From: Escherichia phage EJP2
Length of the DNA: 64,000 nt
Reading direction: 5' to 3' (one strand)
Sequence record: OQ411014.1
Shown: in pieces, positions 8,345 to 27,065 of the stretch
How the letters are laid out: the number at the start of each line of letters is the position of its first letter
Position numbering within the stretch: position 1 is the first letter of the stretch
Made by a program: the position numbers and the translations under genes
Notes under the pieces: generated by a model
Seen by the model: only the letters and a program-made list of their open reading frames with translations
Told to the model about the DNA's origin: nothing
Databases searched by the model: none

Positions 8345-8351
8345 AAAGTAC

Positions 8352-9858: not shown

Positions 9859-10358
9859 GACTACGAGTAGAAGATTACTCTTATGATGAAGTTCTAAAGT
9901 TAGCCCACGATATACGTTTGATGATGAGTGCCTTTGATACTGGTCGGCTAGATGGTTATAAAGATATTCGCAGAGAAGACGTTGATGAAAAGACTGTGGA
10001 GTACTATATTGGGAACGATAGGGTCGCACATCTAAACAGATATGAATCAACTCTATGGAGTATGCTTATGCAGAAACATGGAACTATCAAACATAACTCT
10101 TTCGCTGCACACACTATGTTTGTTATCGACGCTGTGGTTCATGAACGTAAGCTAGATGATCCCATGTTTACTGTTTCGGAAGAACAATTCTTTTACAACA
10201 CTTTACAATATCCCAACAACACTGTTCCCGCTAGAGGTATTATTTTTGGTGTACTGAATGAACATACGTTTGATTACAATGAAATTACATTGAAATTCAA
10301 ATTACACCTAGATAAGATGTTAGCTTACTCACAAGAGGTTATGCATAATGCAATGTAA
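9855..10358 (+). CDS. FQ-motif paralog family protein
   Basis: Motif TVSEEQFFYNTL; ATGA overlap with upstream stop. Confidence 0.7.
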   Translation: MRLRVEDYSYDEVLKLAHDIRLMMSAFDTGRLDGYKDIRREDVDEKTVEYYIGNDRVAHLNRYESTLWSMLMQKHGTIKHNSFAAHTMFVIDAVVHERKLDDPMFTVSEEQFFYNTLQYPNNTVPARGIIFGVLNEHTFDYNEITLKFKLHLDKMLAYSQEVMHNAM

Positions 10359-10680
10359 CGTTATTATAAACACGTATTGTGAATCATATACACATCTTGG
10401 TGTTATGCGTTTTTCTGAACCAATGACGAATTATCTTATTCGCTATAACCACCGCAAAAATGAATGGGAACTTCGATACTATAATCCAAAAACATTGGAT
10501 GTGGAACAGATTGATGATACTATTGCTGTACTGTTGGACATGACTGAAGAAGAACTGTTCCAACATTCGTGCATTACTGATTTCGATGTCTACATGGTTC
10601 ACGCTGGTATGCAAGAGTTGAAACATAACACTCCCACAAGCTATAATTCCGTAATAACTAAGAAAACATTGGAGTACTAA
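10348..10680 (+). CDS. FQ-motif paralog family protein (short, divergent)
   Basis: Motif TEEELFQHS; 11-nt overlap ATGCAATGTAA. Confidence 0.55.
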   Translation: MQCNVIINTYCESYTHLGVMRFSEPMTNYLIRYNHRKNEWELRYYNPKTLDVEQIDDTIAVLLDMTEEELFQHSCITDFDVYMVHAGMQELKHNTPTSYNSVITKKTLEY

Positions 10681-11180
10681 TGAACACATTTGAAGAAGAT
10701 TTACAATTTGCTAACAAGGTGTTACGAATCCGAAATGCTATGATTACTGGTGAATTAAAAACTCTTCCAGGAGTGCATGAGCAGACCAATCCATTTCTTA
10801 ATGAACTGGATTTTTTATTCTTTGGAAATGTTGATTTAAGATCAGCACCGCTTGGATGTTTGACTTTTGAAAAAGGCGTTTCACGTTCTATAATTTCTCA
10901 AAGACATATATCATATAACACCAACGATGATAAGATTGCAGTTTTCAATGATGACCTTGAGAAATACGTTGACGTTGATATTGTTGATTACGATGAAAGC
11001 CTTTACTTTCAACACAGCCTGTTGTATACTCCTTGTGACTTACGTTACTTGGTTACTGCTTCTGTACTGAAGGCAAATGAAATTCCAGATAGACCAAACA
11101 TCCATCGATTCAAGTTTCAGTTGGTGCACATTCCAACAATTCATAAACTCTTGAGGTATAGAGACTATGGCATCATTTGA
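10680..11180 (+). CDS. FQ-motif paralog family protein
   Basis: Motif DESLYFQHSLLY; TAATG overlap. Confidence 0.65.
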   Translation: MNTFEEDLQFANKVLRIRNAMITGELKTLPGVHEQTNPFLNELDFLFFGNVDLRSAPLGCLTFEKGVSRSIISQRHISYNTNDDKIAVFNDDLEKYVDVDIVDYDESLYFQHSLLYTPCDLRYLVTASVLKANEIPDRPNIHRFKFQLVHIPTIHKLLRYRDYGII

Positions 11181-11646
11181 AGAAGATTACGCAGAAGCAA
11201 AAGATATCTGTACTGTTATGAAAGCCTTAGACACCAATCTGTTTGACAACCATAAAGAGATTATGACATTTCATAATGAATTCGAAACGATATATCAATG
11301 TTGGAATACAAGGTTCGCAGCAGTAAGTAAACATACTATTGGATATAAAAATAGCATTGACATTACAGGTAAACTGATTGACTATAGACCACATTCAGAT
11401 TCGTTTCAATATTTCAATTATGAAGATATGAAAGGGTATCTACTAAAAAAACACGACGCTGTATTCACCCCGACTGAAGAACAATATTTTCAAAATTCTA
11501 TTCTGTACGATCCAATCAATGTGAGAAGGTTTCTCATTTACGGAATACTAAATCAAGAAACTTTTGAGAACGAATTTATTCACTTGGACTACAACGTACT
11601 GAATCGTCTTGTACATCTTGCTAACGAGGCTAGAAATGCAACGTAA
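11167..11646 (+). CDS. FQ-motif paralog family protein
   Basis: Motif TEEQYFQNSILYD. Confidence 0.7.
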   Translation: MASFEEDYAEAKDICTVMKALDTNLFDNHKEIMTFHNEFETIYQCWNTRFAAVSKHTIGYKNSIDITGKLIDYRPHSDSFQYFNYEDMKGYLLKKHDAVFTPTEEQYFQNSILYDPINVRRFLIYGILNQETFENEFIHLDYNVLNRLVHLANEARNAT

Positions 11647-12223
11647 TGAATACACTGAATATACTGAATATACCGAAGTAGATGATGCTATTGATGTACC
11701 AGAGTACTGTTATAGTGATGATTTAAAGTACTGCTATGATATACTCAAGATAAAACACAACATGGAAATCCAGAGTCTACTCAAATTAGATGCATTTGAA
11801 CTATCAAGAATACAACAAAAGTCTATACAGTACGTTATGAAAACAGCCTTCTATGAAGAGTCAGGTCATAAGATCGGTATTGGCTCAGTACATAAGAATC
11901 TAAGAGTAGAAATGAGTTCACATCTAAGTATAACTTACTGTGTATTCGATAGTAGAAGTACAGTCTTCTCAGTACGTGACTATAAAGGACGTTATCCTAT
12001 ATCAGATACAGTACTATCAGAAGAACAGTACTTTCAACTTAGTCTTATTCATGATCCTTATCTTCTAAGAGCAATGTTACTTTATTCTGTACTTAAAGCT
12101 AATTCTAATCTAGAATCATCATGTGAGTACTCTCAAATCAATTTAGCTTATAATAGTTCAGTACTGAAATATATTGATACCCTAGATACCCTAGATACTC
12201 TTGGGGCAGAAGAAACATTATAA
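11636..12223 (+). CDS. FQ-motif paralog family protein
   Basis: Motif SEEQYFQLSLIHD; ATG 11636 (11-nt overlap) preferred over listed 11609. Confidence 0.6.
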   Translation: MQRNEYTEYTEYTEVDDAIDVPEYCYSDDLKYCYDILKIKHNMEIQSLLKLDAFELSRIQQKSIQYVMKTAFYEESGHKIGIGSVHKNLRVEMSSHLSITYCVFDSRSTVFSVRDYKGRYPISDTVLSEEQYFQLSLIHDPYLLRAMLLYSVLKANSNLESSCEYSQINLAYNSSVLKYIDTLDTLDTLGAEETL

Positions 12224-12247
12224 TAACATTTATAACAATCATATAAC

Positions 12248-12814
12248 ATGGTGAGAAGTATGGTCATATCTACAGTAGATGCAAACAGATACAAGTTGGA
12301 GTCACTATTATTCGATGAAGTGAGTTACTCAAAGCACAAACGATTTTGTACTGCCATGTGTACAGTACTGAAGGTTATTGCTACAGGAGAGATAGAGAAG
12401 TACAAGGGTATTACTAAGACTAGGCATTTAGGAATGGGGTGTACATACTACTATAACGATTTTAACTTCTGTAGTGTTGATATGTTAACACCAGATGAAG
12501 AGGATTATTCTGTTGTGATGTTAGGTTCATGTAGGGTAGTACTGTTCAATGATTACAAGGATTTAATATCTGTAGATAACGATTATAAAGAGATTATCAT
12601 TCCTAGTACATCTAATTTACTGATACCTACAGAAGAGCAGTACTTCCAGAATTCATTACTCTATGACAGAGCGTATCATCTGTGTAAATTCTTATTATAT
12701 GGATCTATCTTGCAATTGAACTTACAGTACTGTAGTATAGACTTCAGATACAACCAAGTGTTTGAGCTTGAGGAACTAATACTCAAAGGTGATTATAGTG
12801 AACAATATCAATGA
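12248..12814 (+). CDS. FQ-motif paralog family protein
   Basis: Motif TEEQYFQNSLLYD. Confidence 0.7.
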   Translation: MVRSMVISTVDANRYKLESLLFDEVSYSKHKRFCTAMCTVLKVIATGEIEKYKGITKTRHLGMGCTYYYNDFNFCSVDMLTPDEEDYSVVMLGSCRVVLFNDYKDLISVDNDYKEIIIPSTSNLLIPTEEQYFQNSLLYDRAYHLCKFLLYGSILQLNLQYCSIDFRYNQVFELEELILKGDYSEQYQ

Positions 12815-13349
12815 TAATGAATCATATACTGAAGCTACACAATTAGTACAAGATGTGTTATTAGTAGTACAGTATCTTATGAATTCAGAGTTCAAGGATA
12901 GTGCATTGAAACACACTATCAATGAAAGGAGTTTCTCATCAAGAATGACATCATTTGTATTTGATGTGAATAGAGGATTGGGTCGTACTGTTTACGAGAA
13001 GACTGTTGCTACGTTAAGGTCAGCAGTAGGGGGGACCAATGAGTTGAGGATTACTGCTAACGCTATTCAGTACTGTACAAGTTCTAATACTGTATGTGTA
13101 TATAAAGATGAAGATTCAAGATATCAAAAGTACAGTCCTATTGATTTTGATGATTATTCAGAAGAGAGATATTTTCAGACCTTATTGATGTACGATGAAG
13201 TTTATGCTAAGAACATGCTTGTAGCTTCTGCGATACAGAAGTACATTCCAGAGATCATGCGTTCACGTAATTATAAGGAGTTAACACTTACTGTGTTCCT
13301 TGATGATTTGCTTGAATTAGCTAATATTATAAAGGAAACACAACAATGA
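12789..13349 (+). CDS. FQ-motif paralog family protein
   Basis: Motif SEERYFQTLLMYD; GTG start, exact start uncertain. Confidence 0.55.
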   Translation: MIIVNNINDNESYTEATQLVQDVLLVVQYLMNSEFKDSALKHTINERSFSSRMTSFVFDVNRGLGRTVYEKTVATLRSAVGGTNELRITANAIQYCTSSNTVCVYKDEDSRYQKYSPIDFDDYSEERYFQTLLMYDEVYAKNMLVASAIQKYIPEIMRSRNYKELTLTVFLDDLLELANIIKETQQ

Positions 13350-13936
13350 CGTATCGCTCATTAGCAGCTAAAGCCGAGCATGAATTATATCTAATGCAAA
13401 AGATGAAGAATCTCTTATACAAGTACGAAAACAACGAAGACATTTCTTCTTATCATTCAGTACAGCTTAGTAAGCATTTTAGTATTTTATATTTCAAGGA
13501 CGATGTTGGTATTTTGTCATTGTGTCACCTTCCTAGTGGTTCATTTAATACGGACACAACAACGCTTATACAAGTTTATTCACATTACAGTGATATAGAA
13601 AATATTAGCTCACCGAGAATCCTTGAGTCCTATTACAATCAATCATCGAGTAATATGGTCAGGAATGTGTATAATGATTTCTTGCGGTTTAGACCTTCAA
13701 TTGATGATGATGAGTTACGGGTTATCATTCCTACAGTACAGCAAATGGATTTGAGTACAGAAGAGGGGGAGTTTCAGTTCATTACGGCGAACGACGATTC
13801 AGTACTTGACGTTATGAAATATTTGCAGTACATTACAAGGAATAAGTTCGATAGAACATTCACAACGAGCTTTAGTGATTTAGTACCTGAAGCGATTGCA
13901 GCATGGGATGAGTATTATGAGCGATTTCAGTCCTGA
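13346..13936 (+). CDS. FQ-motif paralog family protein
   Basis: Motif LSTEEGEFQF; ATGA overlap. Confidence 0.65.
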   Translation: MTYRSLAAKAEHELYLMQKMKNLLYKYENNEDISSYHSVQLSKHFSILYFKDDVGILSLCHLPSGSFNTDTTTLIQVYSHYSDIENISSPRILESYYNQSSSNMVRNVYNDFLRFRPSIDDDELRVIIPTVQQMDLSTEEGEFQFITANDDSVLDVMKYLQYITRNKFDRTFTTSFSDLVPEAIAAWDEYYERFQS

Positions 13937-13968
13937 GATTATTCAAGCAGCTAAGGATATTGAGAGTT

Positions 13969-14535
13969 ATGAGCGACGATTTAGTACAGAAGATTAGTTC
14001 CACAGTTCATGTATTGAAGTTTATGCATAATTTACAAACACAGCTAATACAGGACAATATCATTCCTGGTATTTTTTCATTAGAATTGAATAAAGAATTC
14101 AAGATAACATATGTAGATTATGATAAGTCATGTACATTGAAATTAATGTACGCACCATCAGTGCATTCTGCGTTTGCTAATCAGCAACTTGATGTTGTTG
14201 TGTTAACAATATCGAAATCAGACACATCCCCAGAGTCATCTTATTCACCGCAGCATTACCTCATTTCGAATAAAGATACACAAAGAATCAAGACCACAGC
14301 ATACAAGAATGCACAGGAATGGATACCAATTATTCCTAAGAGCGAGCTTGATTTGAGTACAGAAGAGGCAGATTTTCAGTACAGGATGATTTACGACGAT
14401 GTAGTACTTGATATGTTGAAATTCGTTCAGGCAGTTCAAGATGAAGTGTACGTAGATTTTTGTACATTTTTATCTCCAGTAATATACAGAGCACATGAGG
14501 CAATTGTACGATATGAAAATAAAATTAGAATTTGA
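13969..14535 (+). CDS. FQ-motif paralog family protein
   Basis: Motif LSTEEADFQY; ATG 13969 preferred over TTG 13960. Confidence 0.6.
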   Translation: MSDDLVQKISSTVHVLKFMHNLQTQLIQDNIIPGIFSLELNKEFKITYVDYDKSCTLKLMYAPSVHSAFANQQLDVVVLTISKSDTSPESSYSPQHYLISNKDTQRIKTTAYKNAQEWIPIIPKSELDLSTEEADFQYRMIYDDVVLDMLKFVQAVQDEVYVDFCTFLSPVIYRAHEAIVRYENKIRI

Positions 14536-15139
14536 ATTCCTTCGTGAATTACAGTACAAGATACAGTGCATTGCTAATTTTCTTGACATGTATTCCGAGC
14601 AGAAAAAGAGTGTCCTAGTAGCTGAACGTCATTTTGATGCACAGCTTTTGTATACCATATACGGGATACAGTTAGTTGCTCATAGTCCTATTCGGTATCG
14701 TTTTCCTGCGGATTATCTAAACCTTGAAGCTAGCGTAAAAGGGACCGAAGACGCAACACGTTATTACCCACATTATAATGATTTTAGATTTCATCCAGAC
14801 ACGACCCATTTTGTAGTACTTGGTGAAATGAATGAACAAAAAACATATAGACCCTCCGAGATTGGAGTACAGCATAAGTTGCCAATTCGAAATATAGATT
14901 TAACACAAATACAAGAAGACGAATTTGATGCATATGCTTTCCAGTACAGCACATTTATGTCAGATGAAGAAGTGGCAATGTACATCCTAACGTGCAGTCT
15001 AGGGTGCAAGAACGGGTTATCCAATGGTATATCATTATGTGTATATAATATTGATAATATGTTGGAACATTTGAATACAGCTAAAGCATACACACAAGTA
15101 GAATATGATGCATACAGATACGGCAGTTACGACAGATAA
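14513..15139 (+). CDS. FQ-motif paralog family protein
   Basis: Motif FDAYAFQYSTF; start 14495 or 14513. Confidence 0.55.
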   Translation: MKIKLEFEFLRELQYKIQCIANFLDMYSEQKKSVLVAERHFDAQLLYTIYGIQLVAHSPIRYRFPADYLNLEASVKGTEDATRYYPHYNDFRFHPDTTHFVVLGEMNEQKTYRPSEIGVQHKLPIRNIDLTQIQEDEFDAYAFQYSTFMSDEEVAMYILTCSLGCKNGLSNGISLCVYNIDNMLEHLNTAKAYTQVEYDAYRYGSYDR

Positions 15140-15866
15140 AGCAAAAGTAATCCAGTACAGTCATGTTCACGCAGTGAAGTTGGCATTTGTATTGGCTGTT
15201 ACGGAGTACATATATCAGTACGGGGATTTTTCGTCAGATAGTGCATATAATGTTACGAAATATGATTATCCAGGAGCCAAAGGTGATGCATTACGATTCA
15301 GGGATGCATTTATCACATACGATTCATTGAATAATAAATCCGTATATGGTTTCAAGGCATTCATTGGAAATGACCTAAATGTCAAGAACAAGATGATAAT
15401 GTTCAAGGCGTACGTTCACAGTCCTGAAGATCCAAATGTACCAATGCGTAGTACAGCATTCAATGCACATCCAGATTGCGATTCAGTCCTGTACACACAG
15501 GATTCGATAGTATACAATTCATTATGTAATGAAATGCAAGTCCAGGGTGAAGAAATCAGTGTTCCAGTACGATTCAGTACGAAAGTTCTTGACGAGGCGA
15601 AATATTTCCAGTACAGTACATGTATGACGGATACACAAATTTACAGTGCATACATCAAGTCCTATCTTGATAAGTACGATTTGTGTAGTTTCACATGCAG
15701 ACACGAAGTACAGGATAAGTTATTTGATGTATATTTCGAGGACAATTTTGAGTTCGAGGATTACCCGTCGAAGGATGCCAGTACTGAGCAGATTGAAATG
15801 TACAATAAAGTCCTAGTGCTTTTAGATGAAGTTATTGCTTTAGGAGTTGACATACACAGGATGTGA
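15105..15866 (+). CDS. FQ-motif paralog family protein
   Basis: Motif EAKYFQYSTCM. Confidence 0.6.
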   Translation: MMHTDTAVTTDKAKVIQYSHVHAVKLAFVLAVTEYIYQYGDFSSDSAYNVTKYDYPGAKGDALRFRDAFITYDSLNNKSVYGFKAFIGNDLNVKNKMIMFKAYVHSPEDPNVPMRSTAFNAHPDCDSVLYTQDSIVYNSLCNEMQVQGEEISVPVRFSTKVLDEAKYFQYSTCMTDTQIYSAYIKSYLDKYDLCSFTCRHEVQDKLFDVYFEDNFEFEDYPSKDASTEQIEMYNKVLVLLDEVIALGVDIHRM

Positions 15867-15913
15867 TGTTATAATGCAAAAATATACCCCACGATATAAA
15901 GAGAGAATATATA

Positions 15914-16654
15914 ATGCTAAACATGCGTTCACGTAAGATTCAAAAGCACGTTCAGGTATTGATTCAGGCCCAGAACATTGCTAACATTTCAGATTTCATG
16001 CACAATACAGTACAGAAGGATGGACCAGAGGCGTTGGCTTCATATTTCGATCACAACCGAAATCAAGATCCAAGTTCATATGTACACACGAACAATGAGT
16101 CCTATTTGGATTGTACCTTTGCGTACAACCCGAATCCATCAGACACGTCAGAAGAGATCAAAGCTGATGGTGTAGAGGACGCAGTACCACAAGGTGTAGT
16201 ACCGATGGGATACACACGAGTAACCATTTTCCGCACACCAGAAGATGCGAAGTACATGCGTGATACGAATTACATTTGCATGGGTGGTAAGTTCAGTAAT
16301 CTTGTATTCAATCCGTACAATACGCAATATGAGTTCATAAATTTTCCGAAGAGCGGTAAGACACAGCAGATTCAAATGAAAGTACCGGATTTTGTTCAGT
16401 ACAGTACAGAGAAGCATTTGAACGAGCAGAGTTGGTTATTCCGTTCAATGAAAATTGATGTGCAGTTGATGATTTCGTATTTGAAGGTAGTGCAATGCAA
16501 GGGTATTGACATTGACCCGAATGATGTACAGTATTTCTTGGATTTATTTGGATTAGAATCTTGTACAGAAGAAGAAGTCCTAGCTAAAGTACAGAAGATT
16601 CGAGACGAATATGTCCCACCATCAGTACCAAAAGATTCCTCGGAATTGCCATAA
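15914..16654 (+). CDS. FQ-motif paralog family protein (divergent)
   Basis: Motif VPDFVQYSTE; RBS AAGAGAG. Confidence 0.6.
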   Translation: MLNMRSRKIQKHVQVLIQAQNIANISDFMHNTVQKDGPEALASYFDHNRNQDPSSYVHTNNESYLDCTFAYNPNPSDTSEEIKADGVEDAVPQGVVPMGYTRVTIFRTPEDAKYMRDTNYICMGGKFSNLVFNPYNTQYEFINFPKSGKTQQIQMKVPDFVQYSTEKHLNEQSWLFRSMKIDVQLMISYLKVVQCKGIDIDPNDVQYFLDLFGLESCTEEEVLAKVQKIRDEYVPPSVPKDSSELP

Positions 16655-16810
16655 TGTAATGTTATAATATAACATATATTGGCTTTTATTATGTAGTCCT
16701 GAGATCGGGGGATAGGGGTCAAAAAATTTTCCGCTCCGCAAAGTATATTAATAAGGTATAATACGCGGGGCGGCGGTGGCGGCGGCGAGATTGCGATTAG
16801 GGTGGATTTT

Positions 16811-17179
16811 ATGTTAGATCATGATTTTCGGTTGCACACACATATAGTCCAGGGTGTATATCATTTTTATTGTAACGTACATAAAGGTGATACCAGTCAT
16901 AGAAGGCACGTATATATTTCTTATCTTAATGGTGCGTTTTCGTTCATTAGTTATGAGAATTATAAGTACGGTTCTCGGACAGATCATCCTATGCAGGATT
17001 ATACAGTACTGGATGAGGGTGGGAGATTTCAGGCAGAATTAGTGCTTGATGCAAATTCTGTTCTTACATTAGATGAGATTATTTTCATTCAGAATCTAAT
17101 GAAAGAGTTCTCGGTGCGTGCACAAAATTCTGAAGAATTTGAACACGATTACTATTTCAATATAGGAATTCCATCATGA
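16811..17179 (+). CDS. FQ-motif paralog, 120-aa subfamily copy 1
   Basis: Motif EGGRFQAELV; ATG 16811 preferred over GTG 16802; GC-rich leader upstream. Confidence 0.6.
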   Translation: MLDHDFRLHTHIVQGVYHFYCNVHKGDTSHRRHVYISYLNGAFSFISYENYKYGSRTDHPMQDYTVLDEGGRFQAELVLDANSVLTLDEIIFIQNLMKEFSVRAQNSEEFEHDYYFNIGIPS

Positions 17180-17535
17180 CATATGATTTTTTCTTACATG
17201 CTTACAAAGGAAAAGGTATCTATCAGTACTATTGCAATGTCAATAAAAATGACATAAAATATAATCTGAACGAATTCATCTTTTACGTACAAGGTGTGTT
17301 TAAGTTTGTGGACTACAGTAAGGATATTCAACATGATAGAAGTGATATGTTAGATTATTCAGTACTGAATGAAGCTGAACTCTTCCAAGCAGAAGTAGCT
17401 TATAATTTGGAGTACATTCTTCCATTGCACGAAATTGCTGCTATCCAGAGAACAATAAAAGAGTTTGCCAGTACTGTAAATGTATCAGATGACACTAAAA
17501 AAGAGTACTATTTCAATATAGGAATTCCATCATGA
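17176..17535 (+). CDS. FQ-motif paralog, 120-aa subfamily copy 2
   Basis: Motif EAELFQAEVAYN; N-terminus MTYDFFLHA; ATGA overlap. Confidence 0.7.
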   Translation: MTYDFFLHAYKGKGIYQYYCNVNKNDIKYNLNEFIFYVQGVFKFVDYSKDIQHDRSDMLDYSVLNEAELFQAEVAYNLEYILPLHEIAAIQRTIKEFASTVNVSDDTKKEYYFNIGIPS

Positions 17536-17888
17536 CATATGATTTTTTCTTACACGCTCATAAACACAAAGGTTTTTATCAGTACTATTGTAATGTTCAT
17601 AAAAATGATACCATGCACAGTATGGACCATTATATCAATTACTCAGAAGGGAAGTTTCAATTTCTGGACTACGGTATTGTATCTAAACCATATCGTGATA
17701 TGATAGATTATTCAGTACTGACAGAGGCTGAACTATTCCAAGCAGAAGTAGCTTATAACAGTGAGTACATTCTTACGTTGGATGAAGTTGTTGCTATCCA
17801 GACTATAATGAAAGAATATGTCCAGAATGTACCTGATCCAGCGGAAACAAATGATCAGTACTTTTTCAATATAGGGAATCCAGAATGA
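17532..17888 (+). CDS. FQ-motif paralog, 120-aa subfamily copy 3
   Basis: Motif EAELFQAEVAYN; junction DNA identical to previous copy. Confidence 0.7.
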   Translation: MTYDFFLHAHKHKGFYQYYCNVHKNDTMHSMDHYINYSEGKFQFLDYGIVSKPYRDMIDYSVLTEAELFQAEVAYNSEYILTLDEVVAIQTIMKEYVQNVPDPAETNDQYFFNIGNPE

Positions 17889-18253
17889 CAGAGAATAGTT
17901 TTGATTTTTCATTGTTCGTATCAGTGTATGAAGAAATATATTGCAATCTCATCAAAGGTGATATTGAGCATAACAAGTCAACATTCATCAAGTACAAAAA
18001 ATCTACATCTACATCTGCATTTACATTTAGATTTGTAGATTACGATAATAATCAAAGAATGCAACCTATACAGGATTATACAGTACTGAATGAGGCTGAA
18101 AGATTTCAGGCAGCGTTGGTATATGAAGAAAAGTATCTCGTTACTATGGATGAAATGATTGCTATCCAACAAGAAATAAAAAATCACGTAAAAGAGTACG
18201 GTATGAGTTCAGTACTGGGTAAGAGATTACATTTCAATATAGATAAGGAATAA
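17885..18253 (+). CDS. FQ-motif paralog, 120-aa subfamily copy 4
   Basis: Motif EAERFQAALVY. Confidence 0.7.
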   Translation: MTENSFDFSLFVSVYEEIYCNLIKGDIEHNKSTFIKYKKSTSTSAFTFRFVDYDNNQRMQPIQDYTVLNEAERFQAALVYEEKYLVTMDEMIAIQQEIKNHVKEYGMSSVLGKRLHFNIDKE

Positions 18254-18256
18254 TAT

Positions 18257-18904
18257 ATGAAACAATTCAGTGCAGAAGAAGTAGGAGAAAGTGTAGCGTT
18301 CTTACTTTATGTTTTGCGTAATTTTGGGTTTCATAAGTTATTTGAATTTATTCCTGATGTTGTTGAACATGTTACATCTAAAATTCGAATTGTATATGAT
18401 TTTTCAGATACCTCTTGTATTGCAGTTAAATCAGCAGATTATAATTCTATCTTGGATGTGAATCGGATTGCATTACAAAATGGTGTAGTAGTACAGAGTG
18501 GTGATTATGTGAATGTATACTCAAGTTTTGGATACTTGTATAACATTTCTGGTGCAGGGCAGGATACGAATTGCAGAGTTAACGAACGTCAAGCTGCAAG
18601 ATATGCTCGGAATTTTGATTTGGATATTTCTTCCGAAGAAGATATGTTCCATTTAACTGTTGGCAATAGTAGCAATGAAACTATTAGGGGTGTAGAGATT
18701 TATCGCACCATAATGAACTCAAAGTTCAGTACTGATATGATTCGTGCTATGAGTGCTGATGATGTTAGTCGTATGCCTAAATCCAAAGAGTTAGCTGGTT
18801 CGTACTTCAGATTATATCATAGGAATTTCGAGACGTTTCTTAGTACTGATAACCATTACAACCTTATACTAAAGGGGATGACTTCAGATGAATTCAAAAT
18901 TTGA
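18257..18904 (+). CDS. FQ-motif paralog family protein (divergent)
   Basis: Motif SEEDMFHLTV. Confidence 0.6.
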   Translation: MKQFSAEEVGESVAFLLYVLRNFGFHKLFEFIPDVVEHVTSKIRIVYDFSDTSCIAVKSADYNSILDVNRIALQNGVVVQSGDYVNVYSSFGYLYNISGAGQDTNCRVNERQAARYARNFDLDISSEEDMFHLTVGNSSNETIRGVEIYRTIMNSKFSTDMIRAMSADDVSRMPKSKELAGSYFRLYHRNFETFLSTDNHYNLILKGMTSDEFKI

Positions 18905-19487
18905 TTCTTTCGGAGAAACTATAATTGATGCATTAGATACTGCTAGTCTTATTAATGCGTTATTCATTGATAAAGATGCAGTATCTGAAATTATAAAAAG
19001 TAATCCCAATTATAAAGTTTGCTGGAATAGTTCAATCCTGAATGAAGACAAAAGTGAAGGGGATACTATTTCATTGCGTCATTCTATGCGTCATTCAGAA
19101 TCCTTTGTGAGTGGGCGTGATTTATACCTCAATCCTTTTTATGATACGTTGATTGATTACTCTGGATTTGGTCAAGTAGGTGAATTTCCCATCCCTGAAG
19201 TACATACACTTACACCTGAACTATTCTTCCAGTACAGTACAATTTATACAGATATAAACATCAAAGCATTGACATATGCTTCAGTACTGCGAGAGATTGC
19301 AGCAGTGGACGTACCTGAAAGATATTGGTTACAAGGGGTATTGAACTGTACCGTAAGATTTGATAAACTACATAACTTATTGGTGTATCTTCGTAATGAG
19401 AAGCACAGAGAAGTCAGACATATGAGAGGATTATTGTTATGCCCAGAGACAATACAGAAGATTGTATCTATAGCTCATTTAAACTAA
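18888..19487 (+). CDS. FQ-motif paralog family protein
   Basis: Motif TPELFFQYSTIY. Confidence 0.65.
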   Translation: MNSKFDSFGETIIDALDTASLINALFIDKDAVSEIIKSNPNYKVCWNSSILNEDKSEGDTISLRHSMRHSESFVSGRDLYLNPFYDTLIDYSGFGQVGEFPIPEVHTLTPELFFQYSTIYTDINIKALTYASVLREIAAVDVPERYWLQGVLNCTVRFDKLHNLLVYLRNEKHREVRHMRGLLLCPETIQKIVSIAHLN

Positions 19488-20032
19488 ATGAGAACGACAA
19501 GTACACTTTTGTACAGTATAGTACTGCTCTAATCAATGCAGTACTGAAGAATCGCAAACAAGAGTACTATCTAGATCCTTTGTGTTTGATTGAAGGTCGT
19601 GGGCCTAGACATGATAACTTAGGTTTCATGAACGCTGATAGTAATTATATTATCTACTTCGGTGATGAAGAAGAGTCCAGTACTTGCAATCACATTTCGG
19701 AGGAAAGAATCTTCAACATTTCGTACGACTTCTATGATGATGAGTACGAGTACAGTTCGAACATGGGTCGTGATAATCCAGAAGAACTTGCGTCATTGCA
19801 GTGTTACACATTTGACCGTACGAATTGTAGTGATGAATATATTTTTCAACAAAGTACTTTACATTGTACTCCGTTTATTGATACAATGCGTATTATGCGT
19901 GATTATGTTCCTACGGACATTATCAATAACAAATACGGGTGTGCTAGGATTTACATGAAGAACTTCGATAAGTTCGTGCATGAACATATACAGCACATGG
20001 ATGAATTAGTACAGAAACAGTACAAGGTGTAA
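19439..20032 (+). CDS. FQ-motif paralog family protein
   Basis: Motif SDEYIFQQSTL; start uncertain (49-nt overlap). Confidence 0.55.
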   Translation: MPRDNTEDCIYSSFKLNENDKYTFVQYSTALINAVLKNRKQEYYLDPLCLIEGRGPRHDNLGFMNADSNYIIYFGDEEESSTCNHISEERIFNISYDFYDDEYEYSSNMGRDNPEELASLQCYTFDRTNCSDEYIFQQSTLHCTPFIDTMRIMRDYVPTDIINNKYGCARIYMKNFDKFVHEHIQHMDELVQKQYKV

Positions 20033-20033
20033 T

Positions 20034-21248
20034 ATGAGTGAATCAACAGCTAATGAAAATATTCAGGAATTATTGAGTAATATCCCTCGACTAAAAGAAG
20101 AGATTCAACTCATTAAGGACTGTATTGTTCTTTATTCGACCGTGCTTACAGAGCATGAAAACTTGCTGTGCTTACCATTTGATACTCCTTACATTACTCT
20201 AAATGAGTACATTCTGGAATTAGGGTTTAGTAATTCATTCTTACGTATAAAGGAATGTGACTTCTCCCCGACTAATGCTGCGTATTGCAGTTCTGAAATG
20301 GGTAAAGGTGAAGAAACATACATTATGTTGTGTGACGAAAGTGCATGTACTGAAAAAGTACTCTACACTACTCACCAATCAAGTTCACTCACAGCTACAC
20401 ATGAATTATCTCGATACGATTTCAGTACTGAAGCATCTCTAGAACACGCTGTATTCGATTCTATGCTACGTTTTGAATCACCCATAACAGTGTATACTAA
20501 CTTAGTTTATGCTGCTGTACGTGACGTTCTGGAGCATTCTAACCTATTTGCAGTGATTACTTCGGACGTTGGTTCGTTGTTCAGTACTGATAACTTACCG
20601 GAAATGCAGTTAGTCCAGGGTGAGATTGAAAAGATATCCAGACAAGTCAAAGCAGAGAATGTAACGTTCACAAGGGCGTGCAAGAATCGTGAAAAGTTAT
20701 ATCCGTTGATTGATAAAATTAGTCATCTCTATCATAATGAAGACGAAGAGACTGAACTCGAAACTATCAGAACTGAGTTGTACTTGGGTCATAAATTGCA
20801 TACACATTTCAAAGTAAAAGATAATCTTCTTACCTTGAATATTTCTGTTGATGATACTGAAGTACTGAAATATGTACTAGAAGAGCGACCTTCTCTTACT
20901 ACTAATGGTAGTACTAACAAATTGATTTGTACTGATGGTGAGAATTTTAGTGTTCACTCGGAACGTTCTATGAGTAGGAATGTATTTGATTTTTCTTATA
21001 CACACGATGATAAAACGTTCAGTACTAAAAAGTACAATTTAGAACATTTCGATGAAGAGCATTACAGTACTTTAGAAGATGTACCAGAAATGGATCAGGT
21101 ATTGCGTGTTCAGAATGAGTTCAGTAAGAGACTCTTCATGAAGCGTGGATACATTATGGACTTGTGTTTCTATGAAGTTCCTGCTGATATTGGTCAGAAT
21201 ACATTCCGAGAGATTTGTATGCGACTACGAGATTCTTTGACAATTTAG
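20034..21248 (+). CDS. hypothetical protein, enlarged possible family member (404 aa)
   Basis: ORF track; divergent HAVFDSMLRF...LVYAAV segment. Confidence 0.6.
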   Translation: MSESTANENIQELLSNIPRLKEEIQLIKDCIVLYSTVLTEHENLLCLPFDTPYITLNEYILELGFSNSFLRIKECDFSPTNAAYCSSEMGKGEETYIMLCDESACTEKVLYTTHQSSSLTATHELSRYDFSTEASLEHAVFDSMLRFESPITVYTNLVYAAVRDVLEHSNLFAVITSDVGSLFSTDNLPEMQLVQGEIEKISRQVKAENVTFTRACKNREKLYPLIDKISHLYHNEDEETELETIRTELYLGHKLHTHFKVKDNLLTLNISVDDTEVLKYVLEERPSLTTNGSTNKLICTDGENFSVHSERSMSRNVFDFSYTHDDKTFSTKKYNLEHFDEEHYSTLEDVPEMDQVLRVQNEFSKRLFMKRGYIMDLCFYEVPADIGQNTFREICMRLRDSLTI

Positions 21249-21258
21249 TAAAATACTA

Positions 21259-21287
21259 TTGACGGGTGTTGTGCTTTCGGGTACAAT
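21259..21287 (+). promoter_or_regulatory. sigma70-like promoter with palindromic spacer (operator-like)
   Basis: -35 TTGACG, 17 nt, -10 TACAAT; inverted repeat CGGGTGTTGT..ACAATACCCG spans -35 to -10. Confidence 0.5.
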
Positions 21288-21320
21288 ACCCGTTATTCGT
21301 TTATAGAGAGGAATAAAATC

Positions 21321-21944
21321 GTGAGCAATAAAAACATCAAGGCGTTATTGAATCTGTTACACTTCGCTAAGAAATTAAACACACAAGGTAATGAAGGTGA
21401 TGTAGTAAAAGTTGATACTGATGGTTTAGTTTTGACGTTCCGTAATTCCAATGTTGGTCATGTTACACTATCACTGTTTAGTATTGGGCGGGATATTTCG
21501 TTTTCTAGTACTGTATTCAAGATGTCAGTACTGCAAGGTGCTATGATATATCGTTCCGATGCTATGTTTTCTGATACGGTTGCGTGGGTCACAATCGCTG
21601 ATGACCCTGTAACTAAAATCGGTCTAGATAATCACATTGCATCAGTTCCGGTTCCTACTATCCGTGATATCAATTCAGAAGATGATTTGGAAGTACTGAA
21701 GTTCAATCTGGACTTGACTAATGATAATGCCATTGACCCGGACTTGGTAGCACTCGTTGCTGCGATGAATTCGAATGAAAACTTCTATTCAGTTGGGTAT
21801 ACACTGTATTATCCTTTCAGTGAAAATATGAAGTACGAACAGTACTGGGATTGTGTAGTCAAACACGTCCAACAATACAGCGATGATTCATTAGCTAAAC
21901 GTATTCTAAATGAAGTACTAGGGAGTTATCCAAATGTTATGTAA
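21321..21944 (+). CDS. hypothetical protein (207 aa)
   Basis: GTG start after RBS AGAGGAAT; ORF track. Confidence 0.6.
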   Translation: MSNKNIKALLNLLHFAKKLNTQGNEGDVVKVDTDGLVLTFRNSNVGHVTLSLFSIGRDISFSSTVFKMSVLQGAMIYRSDAMFSDTVAWVTIADDPVTKIGLDNHIASVPVPTIRDINSEDDLEVLKFNLDLTNDNAIDPDLVALVAAMNSNENFYSVGYTLYYPFSENMKYEQYWDCVVKHVQQYSDDSLAKRILNEVLGSYPNVM

Positions 21945-22521
21945 TAAGTTAGGGGTATTGATTGATATCCTACATCGTTCAATACTGAAGTCTAAGGGGT
22001 ATATAATCTTAGGACACTCTAAAGTACTGGATAAACGAATTGCTTTTCGTTATAGTAAAGTTCTAAATGACATAACTGTAGTGGCTGAAGATGTTGATCC
22101 AGATGATAGTTCTCTGGTACTGTCTAGGATTAAACTCATTGGTATTCCTATTGACAACAACACTGCTAGTTATCGTGGGATATATGCAACCGACCGCTTC
22201 ATCTCGTGGAGATCTCAAGAACAAAGTTGTGATGAATTCTACCACAGGAGTACTGATGAGTTCATGACTATGTATCCCAAGAGTGAAGTACTGAAGATTA
22301 TGACTGACACAGATTATGCGGAGTGTCATAAGTTCAGTGCTTTGTTGCAGATGGATGAACTCCTTTATATACAGCGTGTAGTACTGTCATGGTTAGGGTC
22401 TAAAGATAGAAACGAAGGATACGTCATCGCTGACAATTCCATTCTCAACGAAGATGTAGTTCAAGAGATAATTGGTCTATTTGATAAAGAACTGGAGAAG
22501 TACGATGAATATAACAAATGA
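21934..22521 (+). CDS. hypothetical protein (195 aa)
   Basis: ORF track; 11-nt overlap ATGTTATGTAA. Confidence 0.6.
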   Translation: MLCNKLGVLIDILHRSILKSKGYIILGHSKVLDKRIAFRYSKVLNDITVVAEDVDPDDSSLVLSRIKLIGIPIDNNTASYRGIYATDRFISWRSQEQSCDEFYHRSTDEFMTMYPKSEVLKIMTDTDYAECHKFSALLQMDELLYIQRVVLSWLGSKDRNEGYVIADNSILNEDVVQEIIGLFDKELEKYDEYNK

Positions 22522-23059
22522 AATCAAAGTACTGAAATTATTGGAGAAAGTACTGAAAAGTTCCAAGAGTACTGAAATTGAGTTCTGTACTTTTTCCAGG
22601 TCTTTTGTATGTCATGAACTCCCTGGTATGGAACTCCTGGTTACTAAAGGTTTAGTTCGTGTAGTACAAGATAAGATTACTGCGGTAGCTTGTATTGTGG
22701 AGAGTTCTTATTCCCCTCCTAGTACGATTGGTGATAACGGTACTTTTATTATTAGTTCAGCATACGAGAATGTACGAGATAATTCATTGAAGGATGTAGT
22801 TCTTCCCGCTTCTCTTGAAAATTTAGATTTCAATGCCGAAGAAGAACTACAAGGCGTATTCTTTCAGTACTGTACAGTAGTAGATGAAGTTACGGCACTG
22901 GGTGTTGTTGTACATAATTACTTCAAGCAGTATCATGTGTACAATCCTGATGAGTGTAATTGCTGTACTTATTCACGTTGGGTCACAAGAAATGATGGCT
23001 TTAGTGATGAGTTTGTGTTAGCATTACAGAAAATACAGGAGGAATTCTATGTTTGTTAG
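22505..23059 (+). CDS. FQ-motif paralog family protein
   Basis: Motif GVFFQYCTVVD; ATG 22505 preferred over 22472. Confidence 0.55.
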   Translation: MNITNEIKVLKLLEKVLKSSKSTEIEFCTFSRSFVCHELPGMELLVTKGLVRVVQDKITAVACIVESSYSPPSTIGDNGTFIISSAYENVRDNSLKDVVLPASLENLDFNAEEELQGVFFQYCTVVDEVTALGVVVHNYFKQYHVYNPDECNCCTYSRWVTRNDGFSDEFVLALQKIQEEFYVC

Positions 23060-23663
23060 AGATAATAGTCACAACATAGAAGAGGTTGAATTGCTGGATT
23101 TATTCGTAATGCTGGAAGCACTCTTCCAGTTCTGTGTAGATACATTACCATATAAACAGTCTTTGTCTCGACCAGTGATTTTTCCTTTAGGGCATTCTTA
23201 TAGTACTGAACTTGTGGTACAGGAGGAATTACTACGTCTTAGAGTAAGTGCTGGTTATGATGAAAGTGCTCTTACTATTATCATTACTCCTGATTACAGT
23301 GATAATGAAAGTCGTTGTGAGTTCGATTTCAATACTTCCAGATTTCGAATTCAGATGAGTGACAAGCACAGAACAGATTTGGCAGTACTAAGTATTGTTG
23401 ACCACACAGGAACTCGAAAAATTAGTAGGAATGTTGGTCTAACATGGGGTGAAGAAGAGTACTTTCAGAATATGCTTACACATGATTTCTTACATCCTCT
23501 TGATGTGATACAAGAAACCAATGCAGTATATAAGAACTTCAGTTCGCTTCCAAAAGGTCAGTCCTGTAAGGTTACTTTCATTGCTGGGGAACTATTTTCG
23601 AATCCTAAACTCTACAATGAACTACTTCGCAAACTACGTATCAGTATTGAACTATTCAAATAA
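23049..23663 (+). CDS. FQ-motif paralog family protein
   Basis: Motif GEEEYFQNMLTHD. Confidence 0.65.
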   Translation: MFVRDNSHNIEEVELLDLFVMLEALFQFCVDTLPYKQSLSRPVIFPLGHSYSTELVVQEELLRLRVSAGYDESALTIIITPDYSDNESRCEFDFNTSRFRIQMSDKHRTDLAVLSIVDHTGTRKISRNVGLTWGEEEYFQNMLTHDFLHPLDVIQETNAVYKNFSSLPKGQSCKVTFIAGELFSNPKLYNELLRKLRISIELFK

Positions 23664-23672
23664 GGGTATATA

Positions 23673-24299
23673 ATGTCTTATAGTAAGAATGTAGTATTTC
23701 AACGTTATGATATCATTAAAGAGATTTGTGATATCGCAGTGTACGTTCATGAGACGTACGTAAAGAGTTCTACTGTTTGTGGGTTGACACATATTCGTTT
23801 ACCATTGAATTCAATGAAAATTTTGTTCAGTGGTGGTCAAGGAAATGAAGATTACACCTTCCACATGGAGATTATCAGTACTGACAGTAATGAAAGTGTA
23901 AATCTTTCATTTGACAATATTGATTTGAGGGATGATAATACTCTTCCTATGTTTATGGAAATAGACACGACGAGTAACTCATTTAGTTTAGACTGTCGTG
24001 GTACTGCACAGATTATTCGTGTTCCAGTGCTGAAAGGTAATGACGATTATGATGTGATTGATATCCCTTATGCGATGGATGATATCAATACACTGGAGAG
24101 TGTTTTATTCCAGTACAGTACTTTGTATTCTAATGTCCCAGAAAGTACTGATTTCCTTCGGGCGTACACTTGTATGAAAGATATGGTACTCCAGAATAAC
24201 ATGCAATTTGGTAATATAACTAATACTACGAATGACAATAAGTATTTCAACGTAGAAAAACTGAAGAGTGCATATGAAGAACTACGAGCTATCCGCTAA
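23673..24299 (+). CDS. FQ-motif paralog family protein
   Basis: Motif LESVLFQYSTLY. Confidence 0.65.
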   Translation: MSYSKNVVFQRYDIIKEICDIAVYVHETYVKSSTVCGLTHIRLPLNSMKILFSGGQGNEDYTFHMEIISTDSNESVNLSFDNIDLRDDNTLPMFMEIDTTSNSFSLDCRGTAQIIRVPVLKGNDDYDVIDIPYAMDDINTLESVLFQYSTLYSNVPESTDFLRAYTCMKDMVLQNNMQFGNITNTTNDNKYFNVEKLKSAYEELRAIR

Positions 24300-24738
24300 G
24301 AAGTTTGCGAAGAAACTGTACGACATTTATGAAAGTACTAAGAACGTGCGAGAAGTAAAGTACGTACGTTCGTATTGTTTCCGGTATTACAAGGACGGTA
24401 CTATACTTGTGTATCGTAAAAATAGAAATGAAGTGTACGATCCAGTACTGCATTTTGTTCTTAGTGATCATACTAAGTACTTTCATTACTTCAAAAAGAA
24501 TGATGTAGTATATACTTTTGACAATCGTTTGGAGTTGGATTGTGACTTCTTTGATAATTTCACAGAAGAGAAGAAGTTTCAAATGTCTCTAATGTATACT
24601 GAACATGAAATGTTTTTGAAGTTCTTGGCTTATGAAATTCAAAATATCTTCAAAGATGCAGTAAAAGTTGTACGTATAAACTCAAGTGATATTAGATGTT
24701 ACACTCCAGTACTGAAAGCTGCTAAGGATATAAAATGA
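24268..24738 (+). CDS. FQ-motif paralog family protein
   Basis: Motif TEEKKFQMSLMY; start 24268 or 24274. Confidence 0.55.
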   Translation: MHMKNYELSAKKFAKKLYDIYESTKNVREVKYVRSYCFRYYKDGTILVYRKNRNEVYDPVLHFVLSDHTKYFHYFKKNDVVYTFDNRLELDCDFFDNFTEEKKFQMSLMYTEHEMFLKFLAYEIQNIFKDAVKVVRINSSDIRCYTPVLKAAKDIK

Positions 24739-25307
24739 AACGCTCAGGGTTATTCGAATTCATTCTAGATACTAAAAAGTACTTATCACTGTACAATCTA
24801 ATGGAGAGGATGAACAGGTACAATCTTGAATACACGTCATCACTCTTTGGTGAAATGCACGACACAGTACATAACATAAACTTCAGTACTAATGCTGTTT
24901 CTTTTACACTAGAAGAGTACGATACTAAGTTCATGTCTTATACACTAGATCGTACCAGTACTAAAGAATATCCATTTACTGGTAGGATTCATCCTTCGTA
25001 TATTAGTATGTACAAGTACATGAATTTCATTGACTGTACTCCGTGCTGGAACAACCCAGAAACGACTGAAGAAAAGAAAGCCCTTGACGAAGCATTCATC
25101 CAATTACCTGGTTTTAACTACGGTGATATCAGTGCTGAACTATTTCAGATAGCTATGCAACATGAAATTCTTTCTGAAAAAGAGTTGCAAGAGGTAGTGA
25201 ATCGTGTGTATAATCTACCTTATATGGGTAATACGATTTTGCACTTAACGAATAACATAAGTCAAATCGAACACACTGATTTAGACAAATTCCTACGAGG
25301 CTACTAA
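24735..25307 (+). CDS. FQ-motif paralog family protein
   Basis: Motif SAELFQIAMQHE; ATGA overlap. Confidence 0.65.
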   Translation: MKRSGLFEFILDTKKYLSLYNLMERMNRYNLEYTSSLFGEMHDTVHNINFSTNAVSFTLEEYDTKFMSYTLDRTSTKEYPFTGRIHPSYISMYKYMNFIDCTPCWNNPETTEEKKALDEAFIQLPGFNYGDISAELFQIAMQHEILSEKELQEVVNRVYNLPYMGNTILHLTNNISQIEHTDLDKFLRGY

Positions 25308-25958
25308 ATGTCATCTAAAGAAACAGTACCAGCTAAACTAAAAGACTTCTATGCAGTACTGAAGGCTATTCAGGATTACAGTACTGCAATGAATAAGTTC
25401 ATTGATAAAAACAAATCCAAATTCGAAATCTGTTTACCCAAGACTAAGGGTAAAATTTTGTTCGATTGTAATAATATCATGTTCAGGAATAAAGATAACT
25501 TCATGATCTTTCGTGTTTCTGATATGGTTGAGTTGGCTGGTGCATGGGGGACTTTGCAATTCGATTTGACTGGTGATTTCGAAGCATGTAGAGCTTGGGA
25601 TGAATACGTGATTTATCTCGACGAAGAGTGTTCTGTTGTTACTGACTACGATAGCAGTACTAAACTCTTACAGCTAAGTGCGTCCAACTCATATGGTGAT
25701 TCTCCTGACATTTCTTTGGAATGTGTAATCGAGTCCATTGAGGATGTTGAGAAATTCATCTTCCAACTGGAATTAGTATACGATGGTGAATTGTTACCAG
25801 TGCAGGACGTATATGCCGCCATCAAGGACGTACATGATTTCAAGAAATCAAAACTACCTAAGAATAGTGTATTACAGATTTATTCACAGTTAGATATGTC
25901 TTACATTCATGAAGCTATTGAGGTCTTAGAATGCATAAAACCAAACACCAAGCGGTAG
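25308..25958 (+). CDS. FQ-motif paralog family protein
   Basis: Motif VEKFIFQLELVYD. Confidence 0.65.
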   Translation: MSSKETVPAKLKDFYAVLKAIQDYSTAMNKFIDKNKSKFEICLPKTKGKILFDCNNIMFRNKDNFMIFRVSDMVELAGAWGTLQFDLTGDFEACRAWDEYVIYLDEECSVVTDYDSSTKLLQLSASNSYGDSPDISLECVIESIEDVEKFIFQLELVYDGELLPVQDVYAAIKDVHDFKKSKLPKNSVLQIYSQLDMSYIHEAIEVLECIKPNTKR

Positions 25959-26527
25959 ATTATACTCAAGTACTGAAAGAATACATCCCTAAGATGGTAG
26001 TACTGTATGAGCGTTTTGGTGCTAAGTATCCTCAAGGTACAAGCCTTGAAACACCCACTTCCGTTCACAATCCAAATGGTGAAAGAGTACGTTTACGTAT
26101 TCATACTGATGGTGTTAGTCTTATTACTGAATGTGATTCATACGGTATTATGTTGAAGGTTGGGGACAAGAAAGTACTGGATTATGATTATAATTCCAGA
26201 ATCTCCAAGAAGTTTATGTTCATTACTCCTATGAGTGAAACATGTGTACTCGACATTTGTGATTGGTCTTCTATTGGTTTTGTCATGGCTGGTGAGGGTT
26301 ACTACACACCAGAACGTCAGTACAGTGATTTTGATAGTTGTTACTTTCAAGAATCTTTATTGCACGACTGTTATGATTATGATACAGTACTGAAACAAGT
26401 TCAAACAGTGAAAGAATTGCACGCTGTGGTTGTGGGTACACAATATGAAATTGATGTTAGTTCGACTAATCTCAGTACTGAAAAATTACTCAAAGCCATG
26501 AAGATGGTTGATAAACTATTGGAGTGA
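25931..26527 (+). CDS. FQ-motif paralog family protein
   Basis: Motif DSCYFQESLLHD. Confidence 0.6.
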   Translation: MHKTKHQAVDYTQVLKEYIPKMVVLYERFGAKYPQGTSLETPTSVHNPNGERVRLRIHTDGVSLITECDSYGIMLKVGDKKVLDYDYNSRISKKFMFITPMSETCVLDICDWSSIGFVMAGEGYYTPERQYSDFDSCYFQESLLHDCYDYDTVLKQVQTVKELHAVVVGTQYEIDVSSTNLSTEKLLKAMKMVDKLLE

Positions 26528-26531
26528 AAGA

Positions 26532-27062
26532 ATGATTACCAAAGATACAGCATGGATGATTCGTGACATTTATCGTTACGCTAAACATATATTACAGACA
26601 CAAAATACCCCAAGCTGTTGTGATGGTATTGGAATTGATGGTGAATATCATAATGTATTTCGTTTACTCACATCCAAACATTTAGTTGATACGTATGAAA
26701 TAGCTATTCATGTTGGGTCTGTAAACCATTCTGGATTTATGGAGTTCGTTGATTATCGTACAACAACAAGACCAGATATGGTATTATGTAGTTATAATGA
26801 TGATTGGAAGAACATTCAGAAGCTATCTAACCCTCTAAAGGATTTGGATTTCTGTGCAGATTGGGAAGCGGCGAGTTTCCAGGCTGAATGTGTATGTGCT
26901 GATATGAACGAAACAGTACTGGACGCATTGATTATACATAGTTTTATCAAAGATTTATCAGAAGAGACTTATCGCTTTATTCTGGACACGACCGCTCTCT
27001 GTACTGACGGACGATTGGATGAAGCAAAAGTGAAGATAGTTCATTCATCTTTCTTTGATTAG
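26532..27062 (+). CDS. FQ-motif paralog family protein
   Basis: Motif EAASFQAECVC; ATG 26532 with RBS GGAG preferred over TTG 26508. Confidence 0.6.
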   Translation: MITKDTAWMIRDIYRYAKHILQTQNTPSCCDGIGIDGEYHNVFRLLTSKHLVDTYEIAIHVGSVNHSGFMEFVDYRTTTRPDMVLCSYNDDWKNIQKLSNPLKDLDFCADWEAASFQAECVCADMNETVLDALIIHSFIKDLSEETYRFILDTTALCTDGRLDEAKVKIVHSSFFD

Positions 27063-27065
27063 TAA

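Follow-up and report, generated by a model that had tools for sequence, protein, structure and literature searches.

Tandem multigene families that evolve in concert or by birth and death are exemplified by ribosomal DNA (rDNA) and by the gene-conversion tracts of globin genes. Among eukaryotic viruses, the multigene families (MGF) of African swine fever virus (ASFV; MGF110, MGF360 and MGF505) and the accordions of poxviruses (e.g., K3L) are tandem sets of host-interaction paralogs in which unequal homologous recombination alters copy number and the copies later diverge. Poxvirus accordions amplify rapidly under acute selection and consist of near-identical copies. The nearest mechanistic case is the shuffling of promoter-early stem-loop (PeSL) cassettes in T4-type phages (Arbiol et al., 2010, PMC2839356; Comeau et al., 2014, PMC4122927). 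Tandem duplication has also been proposed as a route of genome growth in jumbo phages (Hua et al., as cited for phage phAPEC6 in PMC7247149). Here, we analyze four tandem paralogous genes, W1 to W4, at positions 16811-18253 of a 64,000-nucleotide (nt) stretch of Escherichia phage EJP2 (sequence record OQ411014.1), hereafter the window. EJP2 is a 349-kb Rak2-like jumbo phage, and the paper describing it is silent on these genes (PMC10213699).

The locus is probably an old array in which selection constrains the junction blocks between genes, short tracts are exchanged between these blocks, and one gene, W2, turns over as a cassette. The elements on which this reading depends are the following, all on the + strand.

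W1, 16811-17179, + strand: paralog 1, 122 amino acids (aa), 100% identical to EJP02_039 of Escherichia phage EJP2
W2, 17176-17535, + strand: paralog 2, 119 aa, a 356-bp cassette between j1 and j2
W3, 17532-17888, + strand: paralog 3, 118 aa
W4, 17885-18253, + strand: paralog 4, 122 aa, an open reading frame (ORF) call
j1, 17150-17198, + strand: exact repeat holding the end of W1, a ribosome-binding site, the overlap and the start of W2
j2, 17506-17554, + strand: identical to j1
j3, 17859-17907, + strand: the block in diverged form (TACTTTTTCAATATAGGGAATCCAGAATGACAGAG...), including an ATGA overlap

The four ORFs lie head to tail and encode proteins of 118-122 aa whose full-length alignments show 34-57% aa identity, in agreement with the original prediction of four tandem paralogs of about 120 aa. 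The interiors have diverged, as also predicted: nucleotide identity between paralogs is 52-73% (58% for W1-W2, 73% for W2-W3). The shared termini that were ascribed to all four copies are real but restricted. The C-terminus YYFNIGIPS belongs to W1 and W2, with YFFNIGNPE in W3 and LHFNIDKE in W4, and the N-terminus MTYDFFLHA is found in W2 and W3 only. At all three internal junctions, stop and start codon overlap in an ATGA (at 17176, 17532 and 17885), and AGGA or AGGG lies 8 nt 5' of each ATG, so that the ribosome-binding site lies inside the upstream gene. From these overlaps and internal sites the array is predicted to be translationally coupled.

The junction block is 49 nt long, TACTATTTCAATATAGGAATTCCATCATGACATATGATTTTTTCTTACA, and its exact repetition at about 17150 and 17506, which the original prediction had claimed for a slightly shorter sequence, was verified. 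An ungapped comparison of the surrounding sequence at an offset of +356 gives 68% identity, and a run of 49 at that offset was never reached in 100,000 column permutations (p<1e-5). It is the second-longest exact repeat within the 64-kb window. The upstream part of j1 encodes the last nine codons of W1 (YYFNIGIPS) and contains an AGGA Shine-Dalgarno sequence at 17164-17167, 8 nt before the ATG, and an 8-nt palindrome, GGAATTCC, at 17165-17172. The downstream part encodes the first seven codons of W2 (MTYDFFL) and the CA of the eighth (His) codon. The third junction is less similar, carrying the 18-nt core of the block with two mismatches. An AlphaFold2 model (predicted local distance difference test score, pLDDT, 84; predicted template modeling score, pTM, 0.81) places β-strands at residues 5-12 and 108-112. 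These are the residues encoded by the block, which would thus encode the first and last β-strands of the predicted fold.

Such an arrangement could also reflect a dedicated cis element, that is, a protein-binding site at GGAATTCC, a regulatory RNA structure or a recombination signal. The palindrome is perfect, a small ATCAT/ATGAT hairpin can be drawn around the start codon, and the core recurs at array junctions only. The three sites of the core motif in 64 kb are, on the other hand, all gene ends of members of one protein family, phrog_15629, and every base of the block is explained by codons, Shine-Dalgarno sequence or overlap. The junction RNAs had no extra stability when folded against shuffled sequences (z -0.03 and -0.87), and no Rfam match was found in 16400-18500. 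We consider a dedicated cis element quite improbable.

The original prediction explained the exact junctions by recent duplication, with the identity left over at the junctions and the interiors diverging fast since then. The exact 49-nt block fits this idea, as does the fact that W2 and W3 are the closest pair and share several long identical runs (for instance, a near-identical stretch of 23 nt at 17383 and 17736). Synonymous divergence does not: by the NG86 method, the number of synonymous substitutions per synonymous site (dS) is 0.51 even for the closest pair, W2-W3, and lies at 0.9-1.6 in all others. Relatives of EJP2, designated here by L-numbers, show the same. Five independent assemblies with 97.3-99.7% identity to the window (L003, L006, L007, L008 and L011) and two with about 91-92% (L004 and L020) have all four genes in unchanged order, and one-to-one positional orthologs of the full set were counted in eight independent assemblies. 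Each copy is closest to its positional ortholog rather than to the neighboring copy, with no clustering by genome, and orthologous dS between the window and L004 is 0.18-0.26 for the neighbors of W2. Moreover, this type of array is shared with the genus Asteriusvirus. Nor are the blocks merely too young to have changed, since they differ between the window and L004 by 6.1%, the pace of W1 (5.8%). An apparently rearranged array in L006, with genes of 175, 62 and 112 aa, proved not to be rearranged; a start codon altered from ATG to AGG and an indel, in a contig covered about 3x, explain the unusual sizes of these same four genes. Positional orthology and the dS values thus refute the recent duplication, which we regard as extremely unlikely, and the four copies are evidently an old, diverged and slowly turning-over array.

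If the copies are old, the identity of j1 and j2 requires another explanation. Several constraints would be stacked on the block: the last β-strand (YYFNI), the AGGA within Ile-Gly codons, the ATGA overlap and the first β-strand (YDFFLH). Under these constraints the block would change slowly, and Asteriusvirus phage 121Q has 18 of its bases unchanged. The junction of genes 368 and 369 in 121Q shows exactly this 18-mer, TTCAATATAGGAATTCCA, while L005 and phAPEC6 have near-identical versions; within IMG/VR it was found in 121Q and one other contig only. Purifying selection alone, in which peptide, ribosome-binding site and overlap forbid change and no recombination takes place between blocks, would account for these observations, for the spacing of AGGA and ATG, for the correspondence with terminal β-strands in the model, and for j3 being unchanged between the window and L004.

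What it does not account for is the way in which the blocks change. They differ between genomes and remain alike within each genome. The number of differences between j1 and j2 is zero in the window, one in L007, L008 and L011 (48/49) and two in L003, L004 and L006; relative to the window, the blocks of L003, L006 and L007 have one or two changes, and position 17527 is A instead of C in five close relatives (Pro to Thr in j2). In L004, j1 and j2 are each three sites away from the block of the window, and two derived changes are common to both (CCAT to CCAG, and ATGACA to ATGAGA), a coincidence with a chance of about 8.5e-4. In a GENECONV-like permutation test on the sites polymorphic among the four paralogs, the 3' tract of W1/W2 had 10 consecutive concordant sites (p=0.0028), and W1/W2 was the sole pair to survive correction. 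Selection alone also leaves unexplained the end points of a deletion described below, which fall within the block, and the low divergence of W2 between lineages. It is therefore an unlikely account of the locus, and we infer that recombination, beyond selection alone, keeps the blocks exactly identical. Since j1 and j2 are in direct orientation and 356 bp apart, short-tract non-allelic recombination or gene conversion could operate between them. Exchange of this kind would maintain identity within a genome while the blocks drift between genomes, and the same homology would allow W2 to be lost, gained or swapped as a precise in-frame cassette of 356 bp.

The divergence of W2 from its counterpart in L004 is far lower than that of the genes around it. 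Its dS is 0.023, next to neighbors at 0.18-0.26, and its interior differs by 1.3%, less than the 6.1% of the blocks. This pattern points to lateral movement of W2. The 5' half of W3 is, conversely, the part of the array most variable between lineages. The hyper-divergent 5' half of W3 in L004 was not copied from W2, an origin ruled out by identities of 65% vs. 63%. Five of the six private substitutions of the window, relative to its nearest relatives, are clustered within 72 nt at 17527-17598 (p=5.5e-5). Only two of these five changes match W2, and gene conversion from W2 was rejected as their source; because L018, a more distant genome, has three of the five as well, a patch acquired from another lineage is more likely. 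The low divergence of W2 and this cluster are both signs of recombination close to the blocks.

The original prediction also held that unequal crossing-over changes copy number, and proposed a comparison among isolates. This mechanism is supported by a three-copy variant, by the concerted blocks of L004 and, in Asteriusvirus, by a range of one to five copies and a chimeric product of a one-unit deletion. Such changes are not frequent in the sample: of nine EJP2-like assemblies covering the whole array, eight carry four copies, and only arrays of three or four copies were seen. The three-copy variant, L018 (Logan sample SRR22213601), is a 125-kb contig about 96% identical to the window (3.6% diverged in the segment from W3 downstream) and has the same flanking genes. 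Its array consists of W1, a single exact 49-nt block, W3 and W4, with W2 cleanly removed. To the left of the block, 120 of 120 nt equal W1, and to the right the sequence is W3-like, with two mismatches in 100 nt. These comparisons support a change of the W2 cassette in at least one wild relative, and the arrangement, whose break points fall within the block, is what a recombination event joining j1 to j2 is expected to yield.

Short-read assemblers mishandle repeats longer than k, and the j1/j2 identity or the three-copy variant might have been made by the assembler. Where W2 is present, Logan contigs are indeed interrupted precisely at the block, which forms the end of L009 and L010 and the start of L019. 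This same behavior argues against an assembly skip in L018, which runs through a single block where the same pipeline breaks when W2 is present. In addition, the four-gene layout and a block identity of 47-49 of 49 are found in independent assemblies (L003, L006, L007, L008 and L011). An artifact of assembly or consensus is thus hardly credible. Regarding polarity, L020 is 7.5% from the window and 7.5% from L018 and carries W2, and the W2-W3 dS is far above the split between lineages. Loss of W2 in L018 would therefore be the simpler reading. Loss or gain, the event in L018 maps to the block.

Taken against the explanation by constrained blocks, block exchange and W2 turnover, several observations reduce its weight. 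The concerted-change argument is based on two sites in one lineage, as L004 and L020 belong to the same lineage. The 18-nt core is conserved across genera, and much of the identity could be due to selection alone. Where W2 and W3 have the same amino acid, their codons are identical in 82% of positions, which makes the exact W2/W3 half of the block unsurprising by itself, and the probability of zero synonymous block changes at the age of W2-W3 is marginal (about 0.04, a rough estimate). The three-copy variant is one short-read de Bruijn contig, its polarity is uncertain because W2 has moved laterally and some four-copy genomes may have gained it, and the predominance of four-copy arrays means that turnover is not fast.

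Comparison with PeSL shuffling places the locus close to a described mechanism. In both cases short direct repeats lie between small genes of a large myovirus, non-essential ones in the case of PeSL, and provide homology for deletion, insertion or replacement, and close relatives differ by exactly such cassettes (PMC2839356); L018 is an event of that kind. PeSLs, as described there, are intergenic and consist of a sigma-70-like promoter and a terminator stem-loop flanking unrelated ORFans; the EJP2 repeat is coding sequence and its cassettes are paralogs of one another. A promoter scan found none inside the block and its fold was not above that of shuffled sequences, which leaves it outside the definition of a PeSL. 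Elsewhere in the window, positions 1-8400 contain at least 12 intergenic elements on the + strand, approximately TTGCAT-N17-TATAAT/TATACT-GTTTTACATAGAG, a G-rich hairpin (GGCGGGGGAA...TTCTCCCGCC), a Shine-Dalgarno sequence and ATG (for example at 18, 248, 626, 976, 1325, 1938, 2871, 4686, 6222, 7166, 7950 and 8371). Pairs of these elements share 28-52 nt exactly, where none would be expected by chance, and they resemble the PeSL cassettes known from T4-type phages.

A second array in the window (27722-28330, 28327-28926 and 28923-29528) has an exact 26-nt block, AGGTGAATGTAAATGATTTCATATGA, at 28315-28340 and again at 28911-28936. Identical blocks at successive junctions are thus not unique to the W1-W4 array. 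It is conceivable, if doubtful, that the W1-W4 blocks are selected recombination linkers, a coding counterpart of PeSLs through which in-frame paralog cassettes would be swapped, dropped and added. The lateral movement of W2, the hypervariable 5' half of W3, the clean deletion in L018 and the blocks at 28315 and 28911 would fit such linkers.

With the ASFV and poxvirus families the EJP2 locus shares a tandem array of paralogs and a change in copy number. The proteins and hosts are unrelated, the EJP2 copies are old (dS 0.5-1.6), and the change involves one copy only. Near-identical amplification of the accordion type was not found, as the copies are 34-57% identical and EJP2-like genomes differ as three vs. 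four copies. Like rDNA and globin genes, the array has a short tract in which paralogs within a genome are more identical than orthologs, and its wider family, in Asteriusvirus, has chimeras of the kind left by unequal crossover. It differs in that the homogenized tract is only about 49 nt long and sits at a gene junction, the rest of the unit evolving independently. The duplications discussed for phAPEC6 concern the same group (Asteriusvirus, Rak2-like) and related-gene arrays ascribed to tandem duplication. They are treated in general terms and for other genes, and no junction homogenization, copy polymorphism or chimeras are described there for phrog_15629 (PMC7247149). Tandem paralogs, a tract homogenized within genomes (at few sites), a polymorphism with its breakpoint in the repeat and a chimera in Asteriusvirus are all present. 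The behavior is that of a standard tandem multigene family, with birth and death and local gene conversion, in an unusually clean case.

Asteriusvirus phages, which have about 69% DNA identity to the window, vary more widely in copy number. Copies per locus, counted with a hidden Markov model (HMM), are as follows.

121Q array: 4 full copies and 1 truncated copy
ph0011 array: 4 copies
L005 array: 3 copies
Turkey5 array: 2 copies
A4 array: 1 copy

Protein P0010 of the Asteriusvirus L015 is a chimera, of the 365 type at its N-terminus and of the 368 type at its C-terminus. Compared with ph0011, one 364-nt unit is missing in L015, and the crossover lies in the conserved core. The truncated extra copy of 121Q and phAPEC6 is situated between 32-nt exact repeats. 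In Escherichia phage Turkey5 (L013, 1681-3291), a family member and a gene of about 150 aa form a two-gene unit that occurs twice in succession with similar junctions (...CTAGAGGATA.GTAATGAGTTTAGAAAG), a layout suggestive of duplication units that span more than one gene in the wider group.

All four proteins match phrog_15629, an entry of PHROGs without an assigned function, over profile positions of about 1-120/121 (E about 4e-24 to 2e-29; 5.5e-28 for W1). An exhaustive profile search recovered 14 proteins among 1.84 billion representatives. One of them, P0011, a repeat protein of 3,493 aa, was judged spurious, as its score looks like the sum of 15 weak matches to a repeat that contains DYT. 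P0018, a family member of 103 aa, comes from a 563-bp contig deposited under Actinomadura adrarensis, where it is annotated as a partial hypothetical protein, and is probably phage contamination of that assembly. By tblastn the family was found in 36 phage records, of Escherichia or Salmonella phages only, with one to four matched places each, and every family record checked was assigned to Asteriusvirus. On this distribution phrog_15629 appears confined to EJP2-like and Asteriusvirus jumbo phages. A scan of JGI metagenomes gave no relative. For the array proteins, Pfam gave only sub-threshold matches (DUF402 and CadC_C1), NCBIfam and PADLOC gave no match, a PDB profile search gave no match at E<=1, and structure matches in BFVD were to uncharacterized proteins of Rak2-like phages only.

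Judging from the structural model, the array encodes small alpha/beta proteins. The phAPEC6 homologs, gp443-445, are not named in the text of the paper on the virion proteome of that phage, which hints that the array proteins might be non-structural. The array belongs to a long series of small coupled genes that all lie on one strand. The ratio dN/dS is 0.3-0.75, elevated but not above 1, with dS saturated between paralogs, and variation between lineages is highest in the N-terminal sheet region (W3 residues 9-55). Our best guess, about evenly balanced between being right and wrong, is that these proteins are non-virion, host-interacting or counter-defense factors that diversify in surface loops or patches.

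Expression of the array may depend on sequences upstream of W1, for which an alternative GTG start exists at 16802.

Array leader, 16655-16810, + strand: intergenic region with TATAAT, a G+C-rich tract and a Shine-Dalgarno-like site

This leader is near-invariant across eight relatives. Its TATAAT hexamer (16757-16762) has no good -35 element, a promoter scan of 16655-16810 found no consensus sigma-70 promoter, and the leader RNA did not fold better than shuffled sequences (z 0.05). Between the hexamer and the W1 start, at 16769-16787, is a (GGC)n-like tract, GGCGGCGGTGGCGGCGGCG, in a genome of 37% G+C. The tract is unique within the window and not unusual in its fold, and is kept in relatives with a 1-nt deletion in L003 and L006 and substitutions in L018. 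A Shine-Dalgarno-like sequence, AGGGTGGA, immediately precedes the W1 ATG. Further upstream, a perfect sigma-70 consensus promoter at 15847-15875 (TTGACA, 17-nt spacer with TG, TATAAT) lies 5' of the ORF at 15914-16654 and may drive the four-gene array too. At the other end, W4 has an insertion of STSTSAFT type that is missing from its L004 ortholog, and its 3' end contains an AAGGA Shine-Dalgarno sequence that serves the next, unrelated gene at 18257.

The surrounding region is rich in related genes. Positions 9373-47727 consist largely of tandem paralogs on the + strand, with BLASTP families of 8, 4, 4, 2 and 2 members. An iterative HMM search from the four-gene family recruited 29 of 111 ORFs, through a motif that reads DY(S/T)VL.E.E.FQ..LVYD vs. 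SEEQYFQ.SL.YD. Aligned by hhalign with neighboring paralogs of 160-250 aa, the family shares only a 23-column motif, at a probability of 24%, and the AlphaFold2 model of a neighbor is poor (pLDDT 60). A common origin of the array family and these neighbors is possible. Within 10000-30000, the only megablast match in the phage collection is 19587-20001, which is 80% identical to Erwinia phage Hallingskeid.

The W1-W4 locus reveals no new kind of mechanism. It does provide a base-resolved example of turnover in the "dark" accessory regions of jumbo phages, where old paralogs are held as a predicted coupled array and conserved junctions would double as homology for the loss, gain or exchange of cassettes. 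Assemblers break at such blocks or may skip them, and copy numbers taken from short reads need checking. EJP2 is a candidate for phage therapy and may be heterogeneous at the array locus. If the blocks were indeed selected linkers, they would allow combinatorial repertoires of a host-targeting protein family to form within Rak2-like genomes and between co-infecting ones. The members of phrog_15629, possibly together with some 30 neighbors that share its motif, would make up a diversifying family with candidate roles in host interaction or anti-defense.

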